Position numbers and translations under genes: made by a program. Under the pieces are notes generated by a model that was not told the origin of the DNA, searched no databases, and saw only the letters and a list, made by a program, of their open reading frames with translations. From Bacilli bacterium (GTDB lineage: Bacteria; Bacillota_I; Bacilli_A; RFN20; CAG-826), in contig JAFSNY010000039.1 of NCBI GenBank assembly GCA_017447305.1, forward strand, positions 1 through 57,329: a DNA stretch of 57,329 bases, in the 5' to 3' direction. Below are positions 2,855-15,970 of the stretch, in pieces. Numbering within the stretch: position 1 is the stretch's first letter; each line of letters starts with the position of its first letter.

Positions 2855-2889
2855 TATATTGTTACTAATTTCTATAACGAAGGTGAATT

Positions 2890-4272
2890 ATGATTAGAAA
2901 GAATTACAAAGTTTTTATTGCATATCATGGAACCTATAGTGAAAAAGGTTCAAAACAAGACGCTGAAGATTTAAGAAAATATCTTCTTAATCATGGTTTT
3001 AGTGAATCAGAGATTTTCTTTTTCCCTTCAAAAGAAGGTGGCGCCTATAAGGCCAATGTCATCGACGCATTATCAAGTCAGACTTTCATTCTTGTTTATA
3101 ATGAGAATTTAAAGCTTGAAGATAATGGAATAATCGATCACAAAGAGCATTATGAATTATGCACTGAAATCGATGCTTTTTATGCGCTGACACAGTTAGG
3201 GAATGATGTCGGTCAAAACGACGCGAAAGCGTTATATGTTGGCAACATGGACATCCACCATCGAGGAGACGAAAGCCTTCTCCATCCTTTGTTTAAAGAT
3301 ATTGCTCAATCCGCTACATCAAAAGAAGACAAAGAAACAGCTTTTGAAGGAATTCTTAAATGGATAAATATCCGTCTATCAACACAAGAAAAAGATGATA
3401 ATAACAATCAAATTAGAAATATAGAATTTTTCGATGATAATATCGAAGAAAGAAGAAGATTAGAAAGACAACAAAAATTTTTATTAAAATTTGATGCTTC
3501 TACCTATGATTATCATTTAAAAGACATGAAAAATATCAACATCCTTGATTTAGGTTGCTCTAATGGTAGAGGAGTGATGGAAAGACTTGGTAAAAGAGAA
3601 GGATTATATAATAGATTAATTGGTATCGATTCGAGTGCTTCTAGTATCGATGAGGCTCGCTATTACTACGATAATAAAAATATTTCTTTTTATGTTGTTG
3701 ACGTGGAAAGTGAAGATTTTTTACCTAAGATGCATGGAATAATGAAACAAGAAGGAATCGATGGTTTCGACTTTATTAACTGTCAATCCTTATTACTTCA
3801 TTTAAAGAATCCTTTTAACGTTTTAAAATCTGTTCGTTCGTTGATGAATGATGGAGGAATTATCTTTATTTTAGATGTTGATGATGGCTTGACATTAGCC
3901 TATCCAGATAACGATCATTTAATATCTCATCTATTTGATATTGATTATCAACTTCCTACTACTGGTAACCGTCACTGCGGTCGAACAATCCCTGGTCTTC
4001 TATCTCTTGCTGGATATAAAAATATAGTATTAGAAAAAGCAGGAATTAATACTTGTTCTTTAACTCACGAAGAAAGAGAAACGCTTTTCCGTTTTAATTA
4101 TGATTTCATTAAAGCGGGTTTAGAAAAAACCATTAAAAAAGATCCTGATAATAAAGAAATGCAAAATCATCTTAAATGGGTGATTAAAATGGGTGATGAA
4201 ATGGAAAAACGCTTTTACAGCGATTCCTTCTTCTTCACTTATGGTGATGTAATAATCACTGCAAAAAAATAA
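2890..4272 (+). CDS. TIR-like domain fused to a class I SAM-dependent methyltransferase
   Basis: N-terminus has KVFIAYH...IFFFP...FILVY...ELCTEI (TIR-like pattern). C-terminus has ERRRLERQ, ILDLGCSNG, IGIDSS, FDFI, LLHL and DGG (class I MTase motifs). RBS aaggtga. Confidence 0.7.
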   Translation: MIRKNYKVFIAYHGTYSEKGSKQDAEDLRKYLLNHGFSESEIFFFPSKEGGAYKANVIDALSSQTFILVYNENLKLEDNGIIDHKEHYELCTEIDAFYALTQLGNDVGQNDAKALYVGNMDIHHRGDESLLHPLFKDIAQSATSKEDKETAFEGILKWINIRLSTQEKDDNNNQIRNIEFFDDNIEERRRLERQQKFLLKFDASTYDYHLKDMKNINILDLGCSNGRGVMERLGKREGLYNRLIGIDSSASSIDEARYYYDNKNISFYVVDVESEDFLPKMHGIMKQEGIDGFDFINCQSLLLHLKNPFNVLKSVRSLMNDGGIIFILDVDDGLTLAYPDNDHLISHLFDIDYQLPTTGNRHCGRTIPGLLSLAGYKNIVLEKAGINTCSLTHEERETLFRFNYDFIKAGLEKTIKKDPDNKEMQNHLKWVIKMGDEMEKRFYSDSFFFTYGDVIITAKK

Positions 4273-4291
4273 TTAATAATTGGTTTATGAT

Positions 4292-4501
4292 TTATAGGTG
4301 ACGTAAACTCACTAGTGCTAACAAAACGAAATCAATACCACCGTCGCCACTTTTAGACGTCACCTCAACTTCAGACAATCCAATCGATTCTAAAAATGGC
4401 TTTAAAAATTCTTCGAAATCATAGCCAGTTTCAAATTGATGATAAAATTCATCAAGGATTTTGCCAAGTTCAGCTTTGCTTAATTCTTTAATTGTCCTCA
4501 T
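4292..4501 (-). pseudogene. Mrr-like restriction endonuclease, truncated
   Basis: FEEFLKPFLESIGLSEVEVTSKSGDGGID is the Mrr_cat start; similarity ends before the catalytic Q-x-K. Confidence 0.7.
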
Positions 4502-7925: not shown

Positions 7926-8527
7926 TCATAGAGAATAAATGATTTTAGAAATGATAGCTCTTAATTTATCATTATTCCCATTAACACTTTCAAAACTAGC
8001 AACATTATTCTCTTCAGCACTGATTTTAGACCAGTCAAAGCCATATCCGCTTTTAAGACCAATATATCTAATAATTCTCTTTGGGTTCTACCATTGCCTT
8101 CTCTAAAAGGATGAAGAGCATTTATATCCGCTAAAAGATTAGTGACATAGTTAATGAAATCTTCTTTCGGAATGCCTTGAAAGTAGTTATCTCTTTTTAG
8201 ATTAGCAAAAATGTCTTTAGCGTAGGATTCGATGTATTGCGGAAGGCAAAACAAATTACCCTTTGCAATCGCAACAGTCCTTACCTTACCTGCCCAAAAG
8301 AATAAATCTTGAAACAAATAAAAATGAATCGCTTTCAAGTGCTCAAAATCTAGGTTGCCATCTATTGGTTTATTCAATAATTCGGATTGTCTCAAGCCAC
8401 TATAAAAACGTTCGACCTTATAAAAGGTTTCCTCGTCTTGTATATTTAGTTTATTTATTAAAACATCACTGTCTTGATAACAGTAGATGCCCTTTTCGTC
8501 TAAATAAGAATATTTATATTTATCCAT
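7926..8527 (-). pseudogene. Fic family adenylyltransferase toxin with a 1-nt frameshift after the active site
   Basis: Intact HPFREGNGRTQR motif. Adding one T near 8073 gives FIRYIGLKSGYGFDWSKISAEENNVASFESVNGNNDKLRAIISKIIYSL*, a typical Fic tail ending at 7926. Confidence 0.75.
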
Positions 8528-8690
8528 TAATTCCTAAACTGGCGTTGAGCTGTCTAAAAGCCTCTTCCCTAGTAATTTCTCCATCAACAACTTTAGATAT
8601 TAATTCAATATCAAAATCACTTAATGGCATACCTTCTAATGACATAGTTGCATTAACATCTTTGATTATTTTTTCAGCTTTTTTACTCAT
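8520..8690 (-). CDS. VbhA-like antitoxin (56 aa, not in the ORF track)
   Basis: MSKKAEKIIKDVNATMSLEGMPLSDFDIELISKVVDGEITREEA carries the (S/T)xxxEG inhibitory motif and GEIT; overlaps the fic start. Confidence 0.8.
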   Translation of the reverse strand: MSKKAEKIIKDVNATMSLEGMPLSDFDIELISKVVDGEITREEAFRQLNASLGING

Positions 8691-9342: not shown

Positions 9343-11046
9343 CTATAATGATGGTTTTATCGAATTAACAACATCTGTATATGCTTCAGGTGTTGATTGA
9401 ATTAAGTTTCTTAAATACTCATCAAATTGATTTTTGAAAGCGGAAATACGTGGTGATTTATCAATCATATCAACAAAAGCATCTATTGACACAGGGATGA
9501 TGTTTTCATTTTGATCATCCGCATAATATCTAAAGAAGCTAGCAACTCGAGAACTAACAAATGGCGAAATAACCATGCCCATACAGTCATCGTTGCTTCT
9601 AGCTCTTTCGGTTAAATAATGTTCGCGTACTCCTGTTGTCTCTCTTGTCATCATTTCGGTTGGACTTGTTAACATAGTAGGCTCCATGATAAAAGACATA
9701 TTCAAATATCTATATATTAAATCAGCTCTTCTACTTGGGGCATGATGAAGTGGATAACCATTTTCGTTATAAATGATGTTCGAAATCAAGCCAACTTTTC
9801 CATATGATTTTCCAAGAATCAATGCCAAAACATATTCTAGTCTTAATGGTTCATCAATATCGCTATACATGGAGCGACTATTAATTCTCCCACTTAAAAT
9901 CATGAGTTCTTTTCTTAAAGAGTTAAATTCCGCTTCTTCTATCGCCTGTGTTAAAACGTTTGTATAGAATTCGTTATCTAAATATTCTTCAACAGCAATA
10001 ATATCTGAATAATCTTCTATTACAACACCAAGTTGTGAAGCTTTTCTCTTTGCAATTTCAATTCTAATATCAAGACTTTCTTGCCAAGGAAGATGGATGT
10101 TTTCTAAAAATCTATAATATTCAGTTTGATTTCTAAATTCCTTAAAGGAATAATCTTTATATTTAACTAAAATTGATTTAACTTTTTCAATGTTATATGA
10201 CGAGAAATCATACATTGTATAAGTGGATCTGCCTCTTTTTGTTAAAAGACCAGTCATTTCGAATTTTCTAAACACATCATCTGGATACTCATCAGTTATA
10301 TTATCAAATTTTCCAGGAATCAATCCGAGTTCGTTGTAGCAATAATTCTCTAGGTATTTTTGATTAATTCTAAAATTAAATTTTTTTCTATATTTAATTA
10401 TTTCTTCGGCAGCTTTTTTATAGTCACAATCTTTCATGCTAAGGACAAACGCTCCAAATTCATGTTTAGCAATCCCGGTGTTGTCTCTTCCAAGTGCTCT
10501 CCAAAGTTTATTGACTTCATCGATTACAAACAAAACATTCAAAAAAGGTCTAGCCTTATTGTAATTTGCAGGTCGAGATGGATTGTTTGCATGCATCCCT
10601 ATCATTGCTTTGCAATATACATCAGTTGAATATTCTTCATTGCCAATTAAGTCCCACCCCAATTTAGTAATTGAAATCTTATTTAAACCATGTCGGACAG
10701 GTTCGATCATTAAAAAGCCCTGATCTTTTAATGCTCTAAACTGAGTCATAACGCGTCCGTTAAGTCCACACGCTTGTGGATTATCTCGAATTAATTGCTC
10801 CACTTCCGATCCAGTTAATTCAATGCCTTCTTCCAGTTTAAAACGGACGCCTTCTTGCATTCTAGTGAATCTATATATTCCATCAGCGACAAGTCGTGTC
10901 AAATAACTATGGAAAACTTCTTCTGTAAAAATCCGCCCATCAAAGCCTTTAAAAGCAATTAGAAATTTTTCATTTCTATTAGGGTTTCTAACAGTTGTGT
11001 TGATTGAGAAAATTTTAAATCCTGGTCTATTTCCACTAGTTCCCAT
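9343..11046 (-). CDS. AlwI-family type IIS restriction endonuclease
   Basis: N-terminal FSINTTVRNPNR; C-terminal RLEY...ADL...MEPTM...E catalytic pattern; adjacent to two MTases. Confidence 0.75.
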   Translation of the reverse strand: MGTSGNRPGFKIFSINTTVRNPNRNEKFLIAFKGFDGRIFTEEVFHSYLTRLVADGIYRFTRMQEGVRFKLEEGIELTGSEVEQLIRDNPQACGLNGRVMTQFRALKDQGFLMIEPVRHGLNKISITKLGWDLIGNEEYSTDVYCKAMIGMHANNPSRPANYNKARPFLNVLFVIDEVNKLWRALGRDNTGIAKHEFGAFVLSMKDCDYKKAAEEIIKYRKKFNFRINQKYLENYCYNELGLIPGKFDNITDEYPDDVFRKFEMTGLLTKRGRSTYTMYDFSSYNIEKVKSILVKYKDYSFKEFRNQTEYYRFLENIHLPWQESLDIRIEIAKRKASQLGVVIEDYSDIIAVEEYLDNEFYTNVLTQAIEEAEFNSLRKELMILSGRINSRSMYSDIDEPLRLEYVLALILGKSYGKVGLISNIIYNENGYPLHHAPSRRADLIYRYLNMSFIMEPTMLTSPTEMMTRETTGVREHYLTERARSNDDCMGMVISPFVSSRVASFFRYYADDQNENIIPVSIDAFVDMIDKSPRISAFKNQFDEYLRNLIQSTPEAYTDVVNSIKPSL

Positions 11047-11056
11047 ACAAAAGCTC

Positions 11057-11932
11057 CTAAAAATTTGTAATAAGCACTTCTATCGAATCTGTGATGTTAA
11101 CTTTTTGATAATTGGCGTTTCTATATTGCCTTTTAAGATAATGGATATGATATTTTTCAGCCCATTTTATAAGTTCTTCGTTTTTCTTTCCGTTGGAAAT
11201 AAATACATTTGAGAGAGCTGCTTTAATGCCTGCTTGTGATAACTTATCAAATAAAGTAAATAAATTTAAATCATCTATTTGAGACCATTCACCATTATAT
11301 GGTGCGGTTGTAACCAAGTATGGAGGATCAAAATATACAAACGAATTTTTAGTACAGCAATCATAAAGACTTCTATCTAGATAATCTTTTGTAGAAAAAA
11401 GGGCTTTATATTTCTTGCTTTCATTGCAAAATGCGATTGTTTTTTCTCTCAGCGATTTTGAAAAGTCAACCTTGCCAACAGGTACATTAAATAATCCTTT
11501 TTTGTTAAATCTTAAATAATGATTAAAGCCATATATTATAAGTGCAAAGAGTTTTTTGGTGTCTTTGTCGGAATTGTAATCCGACTTAAGCCTATCAAAT
11601 GGAGCCTTATTATATTTGGACAAACCCTCATGTTTATATTCGATGTAATGATTATCAAGATTTGTTGAATCAGTGAAACCATATTCTTCTATTATTTTAT
11701 TCATTGATTCAATAATAGATTCCCCACTATTCTCATAGAGGTATTTGATTAGTTCGATTGCATGATTGTTAATGTCGTTACAAATGATTTCTTTTGCGGA
11801 ACTATTAAACGAAACCATGCCACTACCTGCAAACGCATCAACAAAAACATCGATATCTTTTGGTATGATATCGAGTAATTCTTTTAGTGATTTTGCCTTG
11901 TTACCAGGATAATTCAACGGAGATATCGCCAT
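11057..11932 (-). CDS. Dam-family (alpha class) N6-adenine DNA methyltransferase
   Basis: SPLNYPGNK, DAFAGSG, RFNKKGLFNVPVG, YFDPPY and EVLITN motifs. Confidence 0.9.
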   Translation of the reverse strand: MAISPLNYPGNKAKSLKELLDIIPKDIDVFVDAFAGSGMVSFNSSAKEIICNDINNHAIELIKYLYENSGESIIESMNKIIEEYGFTDSTNLDNHYIEYKHEGLSKYNKAPFDRLKSDYNSDKDTKKLFALIIYGFNHYLRFNKKGLFNVPVGKVDFSKSLREKTIAFCNESKKYKALFSTKDYLDRSLYDCCTKNSFVYFDPPYLVTTAPYNGEWSQIDDLNLFTLFDKLSQAGIKAALSNVFISNGKKNEELIKWAEKYHIHYLKRQYRNANYQKVNITDSIEVLITNF

Positions 11933-12632
11933 CTAATCTTTCCACCGATTTCCTGTAATAGTTCTCATCTATCTCAGTAGAAACAGAGTTTCTGCCTGTT
12001 AATTTGCATGCTAAAGCAGTTGTTCCAGATCCACTAAATGGGTCAAAAACAACATCATTTGGATTTGTATGAACTTTTATAATTTCTTCAATTACTTCAA
12101 CGCTTTTTTGAGTTGGGTGAATTCTTCTTTTGCCACCAAGAACAACACCACTCTCATATACTGGTTTTAAATATGATTTGTCAGATGGTTTATTAAATGT
12201 CCATCCTTTTTCGCCTTTGACTGCCCAAATTGCAACTTCAAAGTCCGTTACATATCGACTATTAACATTGCGAGGCATTGGGTTTTTCTTTTCCCACCTA
12301 ATAAGGTCTTTAATTACAAAGCCTTCTTCAACAAGTGCTTCAACAAGATAAGAAAGATTTTTCCAATCGTTGAATATGATCATACAGCCACCTTTTTTAA
12401 CGACAGGTGCACATTTTTTTATCCATTCTTTTTGGTCGAATCCATAATCCCATTGGCCATAGTTCATTCCTGATCTTCCCATGTTAGAAAAACCAAGTTG
12501 GTGAGTTCTGCTTACGCAATAAGGTGGATCAGTAATAATTGCATCAACAAAAAGATGCTTATCAACCATCTCTTTTACTGCTTTTTTATAATCACAATTA
12601 ATAAGAATTGTTTTGTTACTCACACGAATCAC
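11901..12632 (-). CDS. beta-class N4/N6 DNA methyltransferase
   Basis: ITDPPY precedes HPTQK and FDPFSGSGTT; GTG start with RBS aaggtgga. Confidence 0.9.
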   Translation of the reverse strand: MIRVSNKTILINCDYKKAVKEMVDKHLFVDAIITDPPYCVSRTHQLGFSNMGRSGMNYGQWDYGFDQKEWIKKCAPVVKKGGCMIIFNDWKNLSYLVEALVEEGFVIKDLIRWEKKNPMPRNVNSRYVTDFEVAIWAVKGEKGWTFNKPSDKSYLKPVYESGVVLGGKRRIHPTQKSVEVIEEIIKVHTNPNDVVFDPFSGSGTTALACKLTGRNSVSTEIDENYYRKSVERLDGDISVELSW

Positions 12633-12725
12633 TCCACCTTAACGTTTGGAATACTTCCCAAATGTATATTAATTATATTTCAGGTGGGTTTTATATGCAA
12701 CGCAGATGTGTATTACAATGCTCAC

Positions 12726-13037
12726 ATGAACGTATTAGAAAAAATAAAGAAAATGCAAGCGGAAAGAGGTTGGTCTACCTACAAGCTTGCATATGAATCA
12801 GGCCTAACTCAGTCAACTTTATCTAACATGTTTTCTCGTGGAACTTGTCCAACAGTAGATACTTTAGAAAAAATATGTGAAGCTTTTGGCATTTCTTTGT
12901 CTGATTTCTTTGATGACAATGACAAAGTAGCTCATGTTTCCGAAGAAGAAATGGAATTATTAAGTAAATATAGAGTGCTTACCGATAAAGAAAAAGAAGC
13001 TGTCAGATCAATGGTCACAGCTTTATCTCATAAATAA
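12726..13037 (+). CDS. XRE-family HTH regulator, divergent from the R-M operon (possible controller)
   Basis: MNVLEKIKKMQAERGWSTYKLAYESGLTQSTLSN...PTVDTLEKICEAFGISLSDFF; ATG at 12726 preferred over the track start. Confidence 0.85.
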   Translation: MNVLEKIKKMQAERGWSTYKLAYESGLTQSTLSNMFSRGTCPTVDTLEKICEAFGISLSDFFDDNDKVAHVSEEEMELLSKYRVLTDKEKEAVRSMVTALSHK

Positions 13038-14947: not shown

Positions 14948-15730
14948 TTATATTTTGGTTTCTTCCATAACCTTAAACATCATGTCGTGGTTATATTCAA
15001 AGCCCTTTTCTTTTAAGTTTTTAATATCGTAGATAGCCGCTTTCGGCATTTTTATCCGCCTTCCGTTAACAGTTAAATATTTCCAACGGCCCATCCAAAC
15101 TACATATTCGGCTTTTACGTTCTTTATAATACTAAGGAATTTGCTATCAATGAAACAATTGTGAGGGTAATACTTTCCTAATGGTTCTTTTCTATTTAAA
15201 TCTTCTTTATCAATTACTTGAACATAGCTATTAGACTCATCGCAAACAAATAGAACGCAAGTTTTGCATTTAGGATAATTGCTCCTATATGAATCCACTT
15301 TATTAGAATGGTTTATCAACACTCTTTCAAAGTTCTTTAAATAACCTGTGAAGTTAAAATCTTCGTTATTAAAAGTATTCGGAACAAAATATAAGCTTGC
15401 ATTGTATTTATTCCTGTAATCCTTTCCCATAAGTTTTTTCATGTAAGCATTTTCCTTTTGAAACGCGTTCGCTATTTTCTTTCCATTTTTTTCATTAACG
15501 CAATCATCAATTCTCATAACATCCATCATAATTTTGTGCTTTTCGTTGTGAAAATCTGGGGGAAGACTATCTTTGGAGGAAGAATCAATCCAAGATTTAG
15601 CAAATAAAAAACTCTTTATAAGTCTTTCAATACGAAAACAATGGAAAAAGTTCCCGAAATAAGCGATTTTTCCATAAAGGATCGACTTAAAATTCTTGAT
15701 TACAAAACTTTCGTTATCCATTGTCTCCAT
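14948..15730 (-). CDS. hypothetical protein, possible PD-(D/E)xK-like nuclease
   Basis: 260 aa with LPPDF...MMDVMRIDD and VLFVCDES; 29 bp upstream of the SEFIR gene. Confidence 0.6.
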   Translation of the reverse strand: METMDNESFVIKNFKSILYGKIAYFGNFFHCFRIERLIKSFLFAKSWIDSSSKDSLPPDFHNEKHKIMMDVMRIDDCVNEKNGKKIANAFQKENAYMKKLMGKDYRNKYNASLYFVPNTFNNEDFNFTGYLKNFERVLINHSNKVDSYRSNYPKCKTCVLFVCDESNSYVQVIDKEDLNRKEPLGKYYPHNCFIDSKFLSIIKNVKAEYVVWMGRWKYLTVNGRRIKMPKAAIYDIKNLKEKGFEYNHDMMFKVMEETKI

Positions 15731-15894: not shown

Positions 15895-15970
15895 TGGTTG
15901 CGGGGGAAGGACTTGAACCTACGACCTTCAGGTTATGAGCCTGATGAGCTGCCAACTGCTCTACCCCGCG
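15895..15970 (-). tRNA. tRNA-fMet (initiator, anticodon CAT)
   Basis: 76-nt cloverleaf CGCGGGG...CTCATAA...TTCAAGT...CCCCGCAACCA with C1:A72 mismatch, A11-U24 pair and encoded CCA. Confidence 0.95.

Follow-up and report, generated by a model that had tools for sequence, protein, structure and literature searches.

A gene in the 57,329-nt stretch of DNA analysed here (contig JAFSNY010000039.1 of the Bacilli bacterium assembly GCA_017447305.1, GTDB lineage Bacillota_I, Bacilli_A, RFN20, CAG-826; the whole stretch is called the window) encodes a fusion of a TIR fold to a class I methyltransferase (MTase) fold. The TIR domain carries a conserved glutamate equivalent to E642 of SARM1, the MTase-fold module retains its S-adenosylmethionine (SAM)-binding motifs, and a large sister clade of the same family has lost them. 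The fusion is an undescribed but recurrent design, akin to TIR effectors that are joined to sensor or assembly domains. The account we favour, tentatively and at somewhat under an even chance, is that the protein is a self-contained TIR NAD+ hydrolase (NADase) effector, held as a dimer and probably gated by its MTase-fold module, with defence as the most likely setting.

The N-terminal TIR fold and its conserved glutamate

An earlier, sequence-only reading of this DNA had traced a TIR pattern over the first ~165 residues of the protein, and all of the strings that it quoted were located in the translation (VFIAY at aa 8, IFFF at 42, FILVY at 66, LCTEI at 90 and ERRRLERQ at 187). Structure prediction bears the pattern out. 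An AlphaFold2 (AF2) model of the N-terminal domain, built from the family alignment, reached a predicted local distance difference test score (pLDDT) of 89.9 and a predicted template-modelling score of 0.86, a confident TIR fold where the sequence-only reading had allowed that the region might not model as one. The model has strands at residues 6–12, 42–44, 63–70, 112–118 and 141–144, an alphaC helix at 88–103 and a long C-terminal helix at 145–177; its flavodoxin-like alpha/beta topology, with a five-stranded parallel sheet, matches solved TIR domains. When the model was compared with the PDB by Foldseek, the SARM1 TIR was on top (best E 1.5e-5) among 48 matches at E≤0.001. With VIA-align against 48,161 chains, ranks 1–23 were exclusively TIR or SEFIR domains (Z 13.1–9.9), led by TIRAP and SARM1, both at Z 13.1 (root-mean-square deviation [rmsd] 2.8 over 136 aa and 2.7 over 130 aa, respectively). 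Below these, an uncharacterised protein at rank 24 was the first non-TIR chain; GTPases and deoxyribosyltransferases set in at rank 25, and no non-TIR chain exceeded Z 9.8. Profile–profile comparison of the N-terminal family with the Pfam-positive TIRs of its homologues by hhalign gave a probability of 97.35% (E 1.6e-11, 85 columns), and ESM Atlas feature matches, which we use as a lead only, were all to TIR clusters (score 0.85). As modelled, aa 1–177 form a divergent SARM1-like TIR fold.

From 1.84 billion proteins, an exhaustive HMMER search with aa 1–180 picked out only 41 representatives at E≤0.001 (17 at E≤1e-10), and the matched segment was the protein N-terminus in all relatives except two short fragments. 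Nearly invariant in the alignment of these relatives are F9, A11, Y12, H13, G14, L32, V69, E93 and F97. Among the first 25 of the 32 families listed for 43 scanned proteins, the domain was accompanied by DUF5919 (11 proteins), cupin (3), other MTases (3), LRR_5 (2), nSTAND3 (2), NACHT (1) and several TPR families (1 each); shuffling among partners of this kind is effector-like, and we count it in favour of an effector role. By this count DUF5919 is the commonest fusion partner of the FxAYHG-type TIR subfamily (P0008, P0011 and P0014–P0053), one member of which comes from a Thermoplasmatales archaeon; the literature searched contains no mention of DUF5919. A phmmer search of the PDB with the N-terminal 180 aa gave a sole match, to the repeat protein BurrH, which was set aside as spurious.

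The glutamate in LCTEI that the sequence-only reading had put at the TIR catalytic position is E93, and several lines of evidence place it there. It is nearly invariant among the 43 N-terminal relatives, it sits in helix 88–103, downstream of strand 63–70, and hhalign sets E93-I94 on the conserved Glu-Ile of the family's Pfam-positive TIRs. One of these, at locus L004 (7644–8063), matches the human SARM1 TIR at E 1.3e-30 (109 bits, ~131 aa), and by counting along that alignment the family glutamate falls on SARM1 residue 642. We take E642 to be the catalytic residue of SARM1, consistent with the title of PDB entry 7cm7, "NAD+-bound Sarm1 E642A", which is among the Foldseek matches. The window protein thus has an alphaC glutamate at the SARM1 E642 position, and by this alignment its TIR domain would be an NADase. 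E77, which MAFFT paired with the family glutamate, was dropped as a candidate, E93 being favoured by its conservation, by hhalign and by its location in helix 88–103. The canonical TIRs of L004 and other family loci also share FISYRR, GKF and WP-type motifs with the human SARM1 TIR.

The methyltransferase-fold module and its predicted dimer

Residues ~212–376 match Pfam Methyltransf_31 (1.6e-11) and Methyltransf_23 (2.7e-11), as well as Methyltransf_12, 25 and 11, and NCBIfam gives sub-threshold small-molecule and tRNA MTase matches only. The AF2 model of the module (pLDDT 91.8) has the Rossmann-like, seven-stranded class I MTase fold and superposes over its full length on 3mgg, an uncharacterised MTase of Methanosarcina mazei (Z 23.7, rmsd 2.6, 245 aa, 22% identity; E 9.9e-6 by sequence), the second-best structural match being at Z 19.0. 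Foldseek likewise ranks 3mgg first, followed by the small-molecule/carboxyl MTases JHAMT, BC_2162, LahSb and TleD. 3mgg and MTases such as JHAMT are stand-alone enzymes with no TIR. Pfam, fold matches and motif scan agree with the earlier view of a small-molecule-type class I MTase that lacks DPPY and PC motifs: neither [DNS]PP[YFW] nor a PC dipeptide occurs in the window protein. A DNA MTase or component of a restriction-modification (R-M) system was rejected because these motifs are absent and the best folds are those of small-molecule MTases. SAM motifs I–III are intact (ILDLGCSNG at 218–226, which fits xLDxGxxxG, GID at 245–247 with the acidic residue that follows strand 2, and VDVE in motif III with the Asp that follows strand 3), and judging from this pocket the module should bind SAM or S-adenosylhomocysteine (SAH).

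Across the family the SAM motifs are not universal. In a set of 76 members (some near-duplicates included; six matches of ≤400 aa left out), motif I is intact in 34 and swapped for a conserved LF[NA]PA[IV]Y[DE]x in the other 42, with [LMVI]AYPD retained. Of 29 sequences that were inspected for motifs II–IV, the 7 without motif I have lost these as well; [LMVI]AYPD is nearly invariant, as are a few other residues. A quick maximum-likelihood tree, with 69 rows after removal of 7 near-duplicates, resolves the motif-intact and motif-replaced types as two clades divided by one branch with a Shimodaira–Hasegawa-like approximate likelihood ratio of 100, and the window protein nests in the motif-intact clade. 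Because LAYPD persists where the SAM motifs have been replaced, the conserved role of the module is not methyl transfer as such.

Prediction of the full-length homodimer suggests what the conserved role might be. With alignment A1, the interface score ipSAE was 0.54 (0.53, 0.56 and 0.54 in the three runs) and the best of 3 controls scored 0.00. Of 30 solved same-chain pairs, 20 reach that mark, as does 1 of 23 single chains. The runs have at least 39% of contacts in common and pLDDT of at least 78. The predicted interface (residues 331, 333–334, 336–338, 362, 365–370, 372–373, 378–381, 384–385, 387–390, 445–448, 450 and 456) is symmetric and lies wholly within the module. It includes D331, G333, L334, L336, A337, Y338, R365, T388 and F447, six of which (D331, A337, Y338, R365, T388 and F447) are invariant in A1. 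The location of the invariant residues at the predicted dimer interface could explain why the signature persists in proteins that have lost the SAM pocket. The protein is accordingly described here as a predicted homodimer through its module.

In the mechanism that we favour, a divergent SARM1-like TIR (aa 1–177, with Glu93) would be tethered by a flexible linker to the MTase-fold module (aa 185–460), which would hold a symmetric homodimer via D331, LAY336–338, R365, T388 and F447 and would probably double as a ligand-binding regulatory part. Once triggered, the TIR domains so tethered would come together and cleave NAD+, and the loss of NAD+ would arrest the cell, most likely as a defence of the abortive-infection type. 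NADase activity, gating by the module and a role in defence are all features that we infer for the window protein. For the motif-intact clade, the SAM/SAH sensing coupled to TIR gating that the sequence-only reading proposed is possible; its other proposal, methylation of a signal, is weakened by the 42 of 76 family members that have lost the SAM-binding motifs but not the architecture, and by the absence of a conserved effector neighbour. That the module is in fact a metabolite-sensing switch, in which occupancy by SAM, SAH or an immune signal derived from SAM, such as SAM-AMP, decides TIR assembly and NAD+ destruction, we regard as unlikely; on this account the sister clade, with its re-shaped pocket, would have switched to another ligand.

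Many TIR domains serve as assembly modules only, and the window TIR could be a non-catalytic scaffold that leaves the MTase as the sole enzyme, an arrangement with which the missing W of the canonical WxxxE would agree. We judge it highly unlikely, since the glutamate at the catalytic position is nearly invariant in the N-terminal family, the TIRs of the sister proteins are very close to the SARM1 NAD+ hydrolase domain, and it is the MTase that is the degenerate side in 42 of the 76 members.

The fusion family and the island around the window copy

At least 76 proteins share the C-terminal module with its LAYPD signature, nearly all of them with an N-terminal TIR. The first homology search gave proteins of 437–470 aa with Pfam TIR or TIR_2 plus the module (6 of 13 matches by precomputed Pfam), and when module-bearing proteins were rescanned with Pfam, TIR or TIR_2 was present in 7 of 7. 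A module-only profile matched 54 proteins at E≤1e-15: 46 have Pfam TIR or TIR_2, 3 have MTase matches only (the window type plus one more), and the remaining 5 are short proteins with no Pfam match (180, 180, 278, 279 and 326 aa). When one genome per species was scanned for the pattern (185,579 species), 18 loci emerged, all of which encode fusions of 430–466 aa; the scan under-counts the family because the relatives' copies L026 and L028 have the same architecture without LAYPD. By these sequence comparisons, the association of TIR and module is a dedicated one across the family. The hosts are Christensenellaceae and other Clostridia, Bacilli, Acholeplasma, Butyrivibrio, a Methanomethylophilaceae archaeon and Ornithospirochaeta, and the NCBI names of the proteins are "TIR domain-containing protein" or "hypothetical protein".

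Close to the window organism, the family is sparse. Of 30 other related genomes, 2 have a family-level match (E≤1e-30). Both same-genus genomes, 75% and 84% complete, lack one, and three weaker matches in the related genomes are generic MTases. The organism's own 1.59-Mb genome contains 4 Pfam TIR_2 genes (on contigs C15, C35, C34 and C85) in addition to the window gene. The one on C85 (locus L025, 3187–4563, minus strand) is a distant paralogue of the fusion. Its 458-aa product combines a canonical TIR_2 (3.3e-13) with an MTase-like module in which the SAM motif is replaced and DGYPD stands in place of LAYPD.

The fusion gene itself is conserved. A 95%-identical representative heads a cluster of 39 members at 90% identity, 13 of the 15 listed members of which are 460 aa long, and an orthologue that is 77% identical likewise has 460 aa. 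Gut metagenome runs of several studies, bovine and goat ones among them, contain near-identical DNA. Contigs within the gene were also found in two RNA libraries (266 nt at 3589–3854 with 8 differences, and 194 nt at 3204–3397 with 4 differences), although contigs out of RNA libraries are no proof of transcription. One 4,045-nt contig from a bovine-gut DNA run (X8) matches the gene over 3075–4332 with 63 differences and then runs on for ~2.8 kb; from this contig, the flank with the R-M relics (window ~4332 onward) may be variable between strains. A promoter scan was at chance level (20 found versus 19.5 expected), and no terminator was found between the fusion gene and its convergent neighbour. 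Comparison of synteny by DNA with same-genus and same-family genomes was abandoned: they are too divergent, the sole match being 30 bases.

Features of the fusion gene and of the island around it (window coordinates; ORF, open reading frame; REase, restriction endonuclease)
Feature	Position	Strand	Details
Whole gene, TIR and MTase-fold fusion	2890..4272	+	Single intact ORF, 460 aa, ATG start
Shine-Dalgarno-like GAAGGTGA	2879..2886	+	3 nt upstream of the ATG; read directly from the sequence
Cryptic TIR-fold domain, aa 1–177	2890..3420	+	AF2 model, Foldseek, VIA-align, hhalign
First-strand signature F9-x-A11-Y12-H13-G14	2914..2931	+	Nearly invariant in the TIR subfamily; stands where canonical TIRs have FISYRR
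Codon of Glu93 (LCTEI), predicted catalytic Glu	3166..3168	+	Equivalent to SARM1 E642 via the family alignment
Low-confidence polar linker, aa 176–184	3415..3441	+	pLDDT 66 in the final block of the TIR model, 45 in the opening block of the MTase model
Class I SAM MTase-fold module with lid, aa 185–460	3442..4269	+	Pfam, AF2 model, fold matches
SAM-binding motif I ILDLGCSNG, aa 218–226	3541..3567	+	Intact; family alignment
Family signature LAYPD, aa 336–340	3895..3909	+	Nearly invariant in the family; at the predicted homodimer interface
Truncated Mrr_cat REase fragment, 69 aa	4292..4501	-	Profile positions 5–40 of 115
Type II REase-like ORF, 183 aa	4498..5052	-	Model positions 71–223 of 227; no upstream continuation in any frame
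Fic toxin (188 aa, 7.1e-13) and VbhA-type antitoxin (56 aa, 5.2e-7)	7961..8690	-	Antitoxin ORF overlaps the Fic start
AlwI-family REase (567 aa, apparently intact) and two DNA MTases (D12 class N6-adenine, N6_N4)	9343..12632	-	
Second TIR protein, 492 aa	13440..14918	-	TIR_2 7.1e-17, SEFIR 4.2e-12
tRNA-Met	15895..15970	-	Far edge of the island

By its gene content, the window copy sits in a defence island, made up of an R-M system, R-M relics, a Fic/VbhA pair and a second TIR gene and edged by tRNA-Met. The immediate neighbours of the fusion gene are a lipoprotein-like ORF and the R-M relics; the restriction-enzyme remains that had been noticed beside the gene from the sequence prove to be an Mrr_cat fragment and a partial type II REase-like ORF. 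The Fic and VbhA-type ORFs look like a FicT/VbhA-like toxin-antitoxin pair. Near the AlwI system, a divergent small ORF (12498–13037) has, by eye, the look of a helix-turn-helix controller. The ~330-aa C-terminal part of the second TIR protein has ESM Atlas look-alikes that are all "hypothetical protein" (best 0.90), and an unannotated 260-aa ORF (14948–15730, minus strand) lies immediately upstream of its gene, the two together adjoining tRNA-Met.

This setting bears on an idea that goes back to the sequence-only reading, a special case of the account we favour, in which loss of SAM or a rise in SAH, caused by a phage SAM-degrading enzyme that attacks R-M or BREX methylation, would free the TIR NADase. 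The intact SAM pocket of the window protein and the R-M systems, present and former, that adjoin its gene are consistent with such a guard. The larger sister clade has no SAM pocket, though, and homologues are not generally beside R-M systems, and we hold the idea to be quite unlikely.

Weighing the alternatives and comparison with known TIR systems

A number of results weigh against a gated NADase effector acting in defence, beginning with the surroundings of the homologues. At 17 non-redundant loci we compared 100 genes lying within three genes of the fusion in either direction, excluding one 2,030-aa protein. By Pfam these are mostly housekeeping genes (Hsp70, PEPCK, TGT, GatB, citrate synthase and Cpn60), and PADLOC matches at E≤1e-8 are sparse, with several probably due to ABC or AAA ATPases. 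The neighbours of the own-genome paralogue are of the housekeeping type as well (an aldo-keto reductase and a GGDEF-type/EAL protein in the Pfam tally). A search of 50,697 phage records did not turn up the family, and plasmids yielded only generic MTase matches. The sequence-only reading had named housekeeping contexts combined with a failure to protect from phage as telling against its own proposal; the first half of that combination is mostly what the 17 loci present. The defence role is unproven because, despite the island of the window copy, the homologues lie mostly in housekeeping neighbourhoods.

Other points on the same side concern the protein itself. Residues 1–200 have no Pfam match at E≤0.1, TIR, TIR_2, ThsB_TIR and SEFIR included, and NCBIfam and PADLOC are also empty; a HMMER comparison of the N-terminal profile (A2) with the PDB reached no TIR and gave chance matches only (E 0.12 and 1.9). 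Because curated models and HMMER fail, the TIR assignment of the window domain rests on profile–profile and fold comparison. MAFFT alone paired E77, not E93, with the family glutamate, and the aromatic residue four positions before the glutamate (the W of DWVxxE, canonical WxxxE) is E89 in the window protein. The predicted dimer shows no confident TIR–TIR contacts, and its score may be remembered from solved MTase dimers. Finally, the intact SAM motifs of the window protein suggest real methyl transfer, which our preferred model does not require.

The housekeeping surroundings would suit a non-immune metabolic regulator, an NAD+ glycohydrolase of housekeeping type linking the NAD+ pool, or stress-induced growth arrest, to the SAM or methylation state. 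Such neighbours predominate both at the 17 loci and around the own-genome paralogue, phages and plasmids were not found to carry the family, and a 1.59-Mb genome has 4 Pfam TIR_2 genes plus the window gene. Set against this are the patchy distribution (2 of 30 related genomes and neither of the two same-genus genomes, 75% and 84% complete), the location of the window copy in an island with R-M systems, a toxin-antitoxin pair, another TIR gene and a tRNA, and the presence of the N-terminal domain at the head of STAND NTPase/TPR proteins, an architecture typical of immune sensors. On balance, we find a metabolic regulator doubtful.

No operon partner, effector, receptor or signal-making gene is conserved family-wide across the loci. 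A PnuC-type transporter for nicotinamide mononucleotide or nicotinamide riboside adjoins the fusion gene at L006 (6642–7346, minus strand; E 1.7e-28) and lies two genes from it at L014 (10981–11763, minus strand; E 1.2e-29), and one NAD synthase occurs among the 100 neighbours, so that NAD-related neighbours are present at 3 of the 17 loci. These may hint at a link to NAD or may be due to chance. Recurrent neighbours are otherwise restricted to sub-clades: a 223/279-aa protein directly upstream at L016 (6846–7514) and L018 (6733–7569; 39% identity, E 3.5e-51), a protein of ~680–690 aa at L013 (5957–7996) and L018 (4697–6769; E 4.9e-31), and one of 793–958 aa at L026 (1938–4811) and L028 (9071–11449; E 2.5e-19). 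They have no Pfam or PADLOC match and may be sub-clade-specific partners. Beside the paralogue at L025, a small regulator-like ORF, HPRT and PRPP synthetase were recognised by reading the sequence only.

The NAD-related neighbours also enter into a two-step enzyme, in which the TIR would cleave or rearrange NAD+ or another nucleotide and the MTase would methylate the product or the released base, giving either a methylated signal or a dead-end product that blocks the rebuilding of NAD+. The window protein and 34 of the 76 members have SAM motifs I–III intact, and the nearest folds to the module are the small-molecule/carboxyl MTases 3mgg, JHAMT, BC_2162, LahSb and TleD, both as a two-step enzyme would have it. 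However, in 42 of the 76 members the SAM pocket is replaced although the architecture stays the same, the neighbourhood contains no conserved receptor or effector gene, and the invariant signature residues at the predicted protein–protein interface are not accounted for by a substrate site. The count of three loci in 17 is, moreover, small, and PnuC is perhaps simply common in such genomes. We are inclined to doubt the two-step enzyme for these reasons and return to a TIR effector that is dimerized and probably gated by its module.

Such an effector can be set beside several known systems. It resembles SARM1 in the alphaC position of the catalytic glutamate, the SARM1 TIR being its best Foldseek match, and, conceptually, in the coupling of a TIR NADase with a distinct part for assembly or regulation. 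It differs in most other respects: the window TIR is 17–21% identical to that of SARM1, has FIAYHG where the latter has FISYRR, and is N-terminal; its partner is a class I MTase fold; and the predicted assembly is a dimer, whereas SARM1 is an octamer. The window protein has neither ARM nor sterile alpha motif domains and does not show the arrangement of the SARM1 family, in which ARM and tandem sterile alpha motif domains are N-terminal to the TIR. TIR-STING (Z 12.8) and TIR-SAVED (Z 12.1) are similar in combining an N-terminal TIR with a C-terminal domain of nucleotide-binding type in one polypeptide. Their genes lie in CBASS or type III CRISPR operons that make the ligand, whereas the fusion family has no conserved signal-making partner, and the C-terminal domain of the window protein is an MTase fold rather than STING or SAVED.

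Matches to other defence systems are confined to the TIR. The sister TIRs match the PADLOC models for Thoeris ThsB, SAVED-TIR, Aga_TIR and PDC-S66 weakly (E 1e-5 to 5e-10) and over the TIR domain only. Unlike Thoeris, the window protein has no PADLOC match and no ThsA-like neighbour, the only PADLOC matches of its near neighbours being REase models. Membership of Thoeris, CBASS or Pycsar was rejected, there being no matching models or partner genes. The DUF4062 TIR-like NADases (Swarozyc; bioRxiv 10.64898/2026.05.01.722283) are another NADase TIR-like family unrecognised by name, and Swarozyc reportedly assembles with the phage portal; the window protein differs in having no DUF4062 Pfam match at E≤0.1. 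No model in PADLOC 2.0 covers the TIR plus MTase architecture, and the main texts of the literature searched contain no description of it, although the supplement of a TIR atlas could list it; nor is it described in the parts covered of the Kongming preprint and of preprints from 2026. To the extent of these main texts and PADLOC, the searches agree with the sequence-only reading, which had recognised no described TIR-MTase fusion system.

TIR NADases are central to bacterial, plant and animal immunity, and their control is a key question in each. The results presented here define a TIR subfamily, with the signature FxAYHG and ~41 representative clusters, that is invisible to current curated models, and a new dedicated partner module on the MTase fold that exists in apparently active and in re-purposed, pseudo-enzyme forms. 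With bacterial TIRs so close to that of human SARM1, the fusion offers a compact two-domain system in which the assembly or gating of a SARM1-type TIR by a non-TIR domain can be studied, and the window protein is a candidate single-gene defence protein from an under-studied group of gut Bacillota. Sensing of SAM-related ligands by the module, if it occurs, would give NAD+-depletion immunity a new type of input; a true metabolite switch would link the methyl-donor pool directly to such immunity and would constitute a bacterial counterpart of the allosteric control of SARM1.

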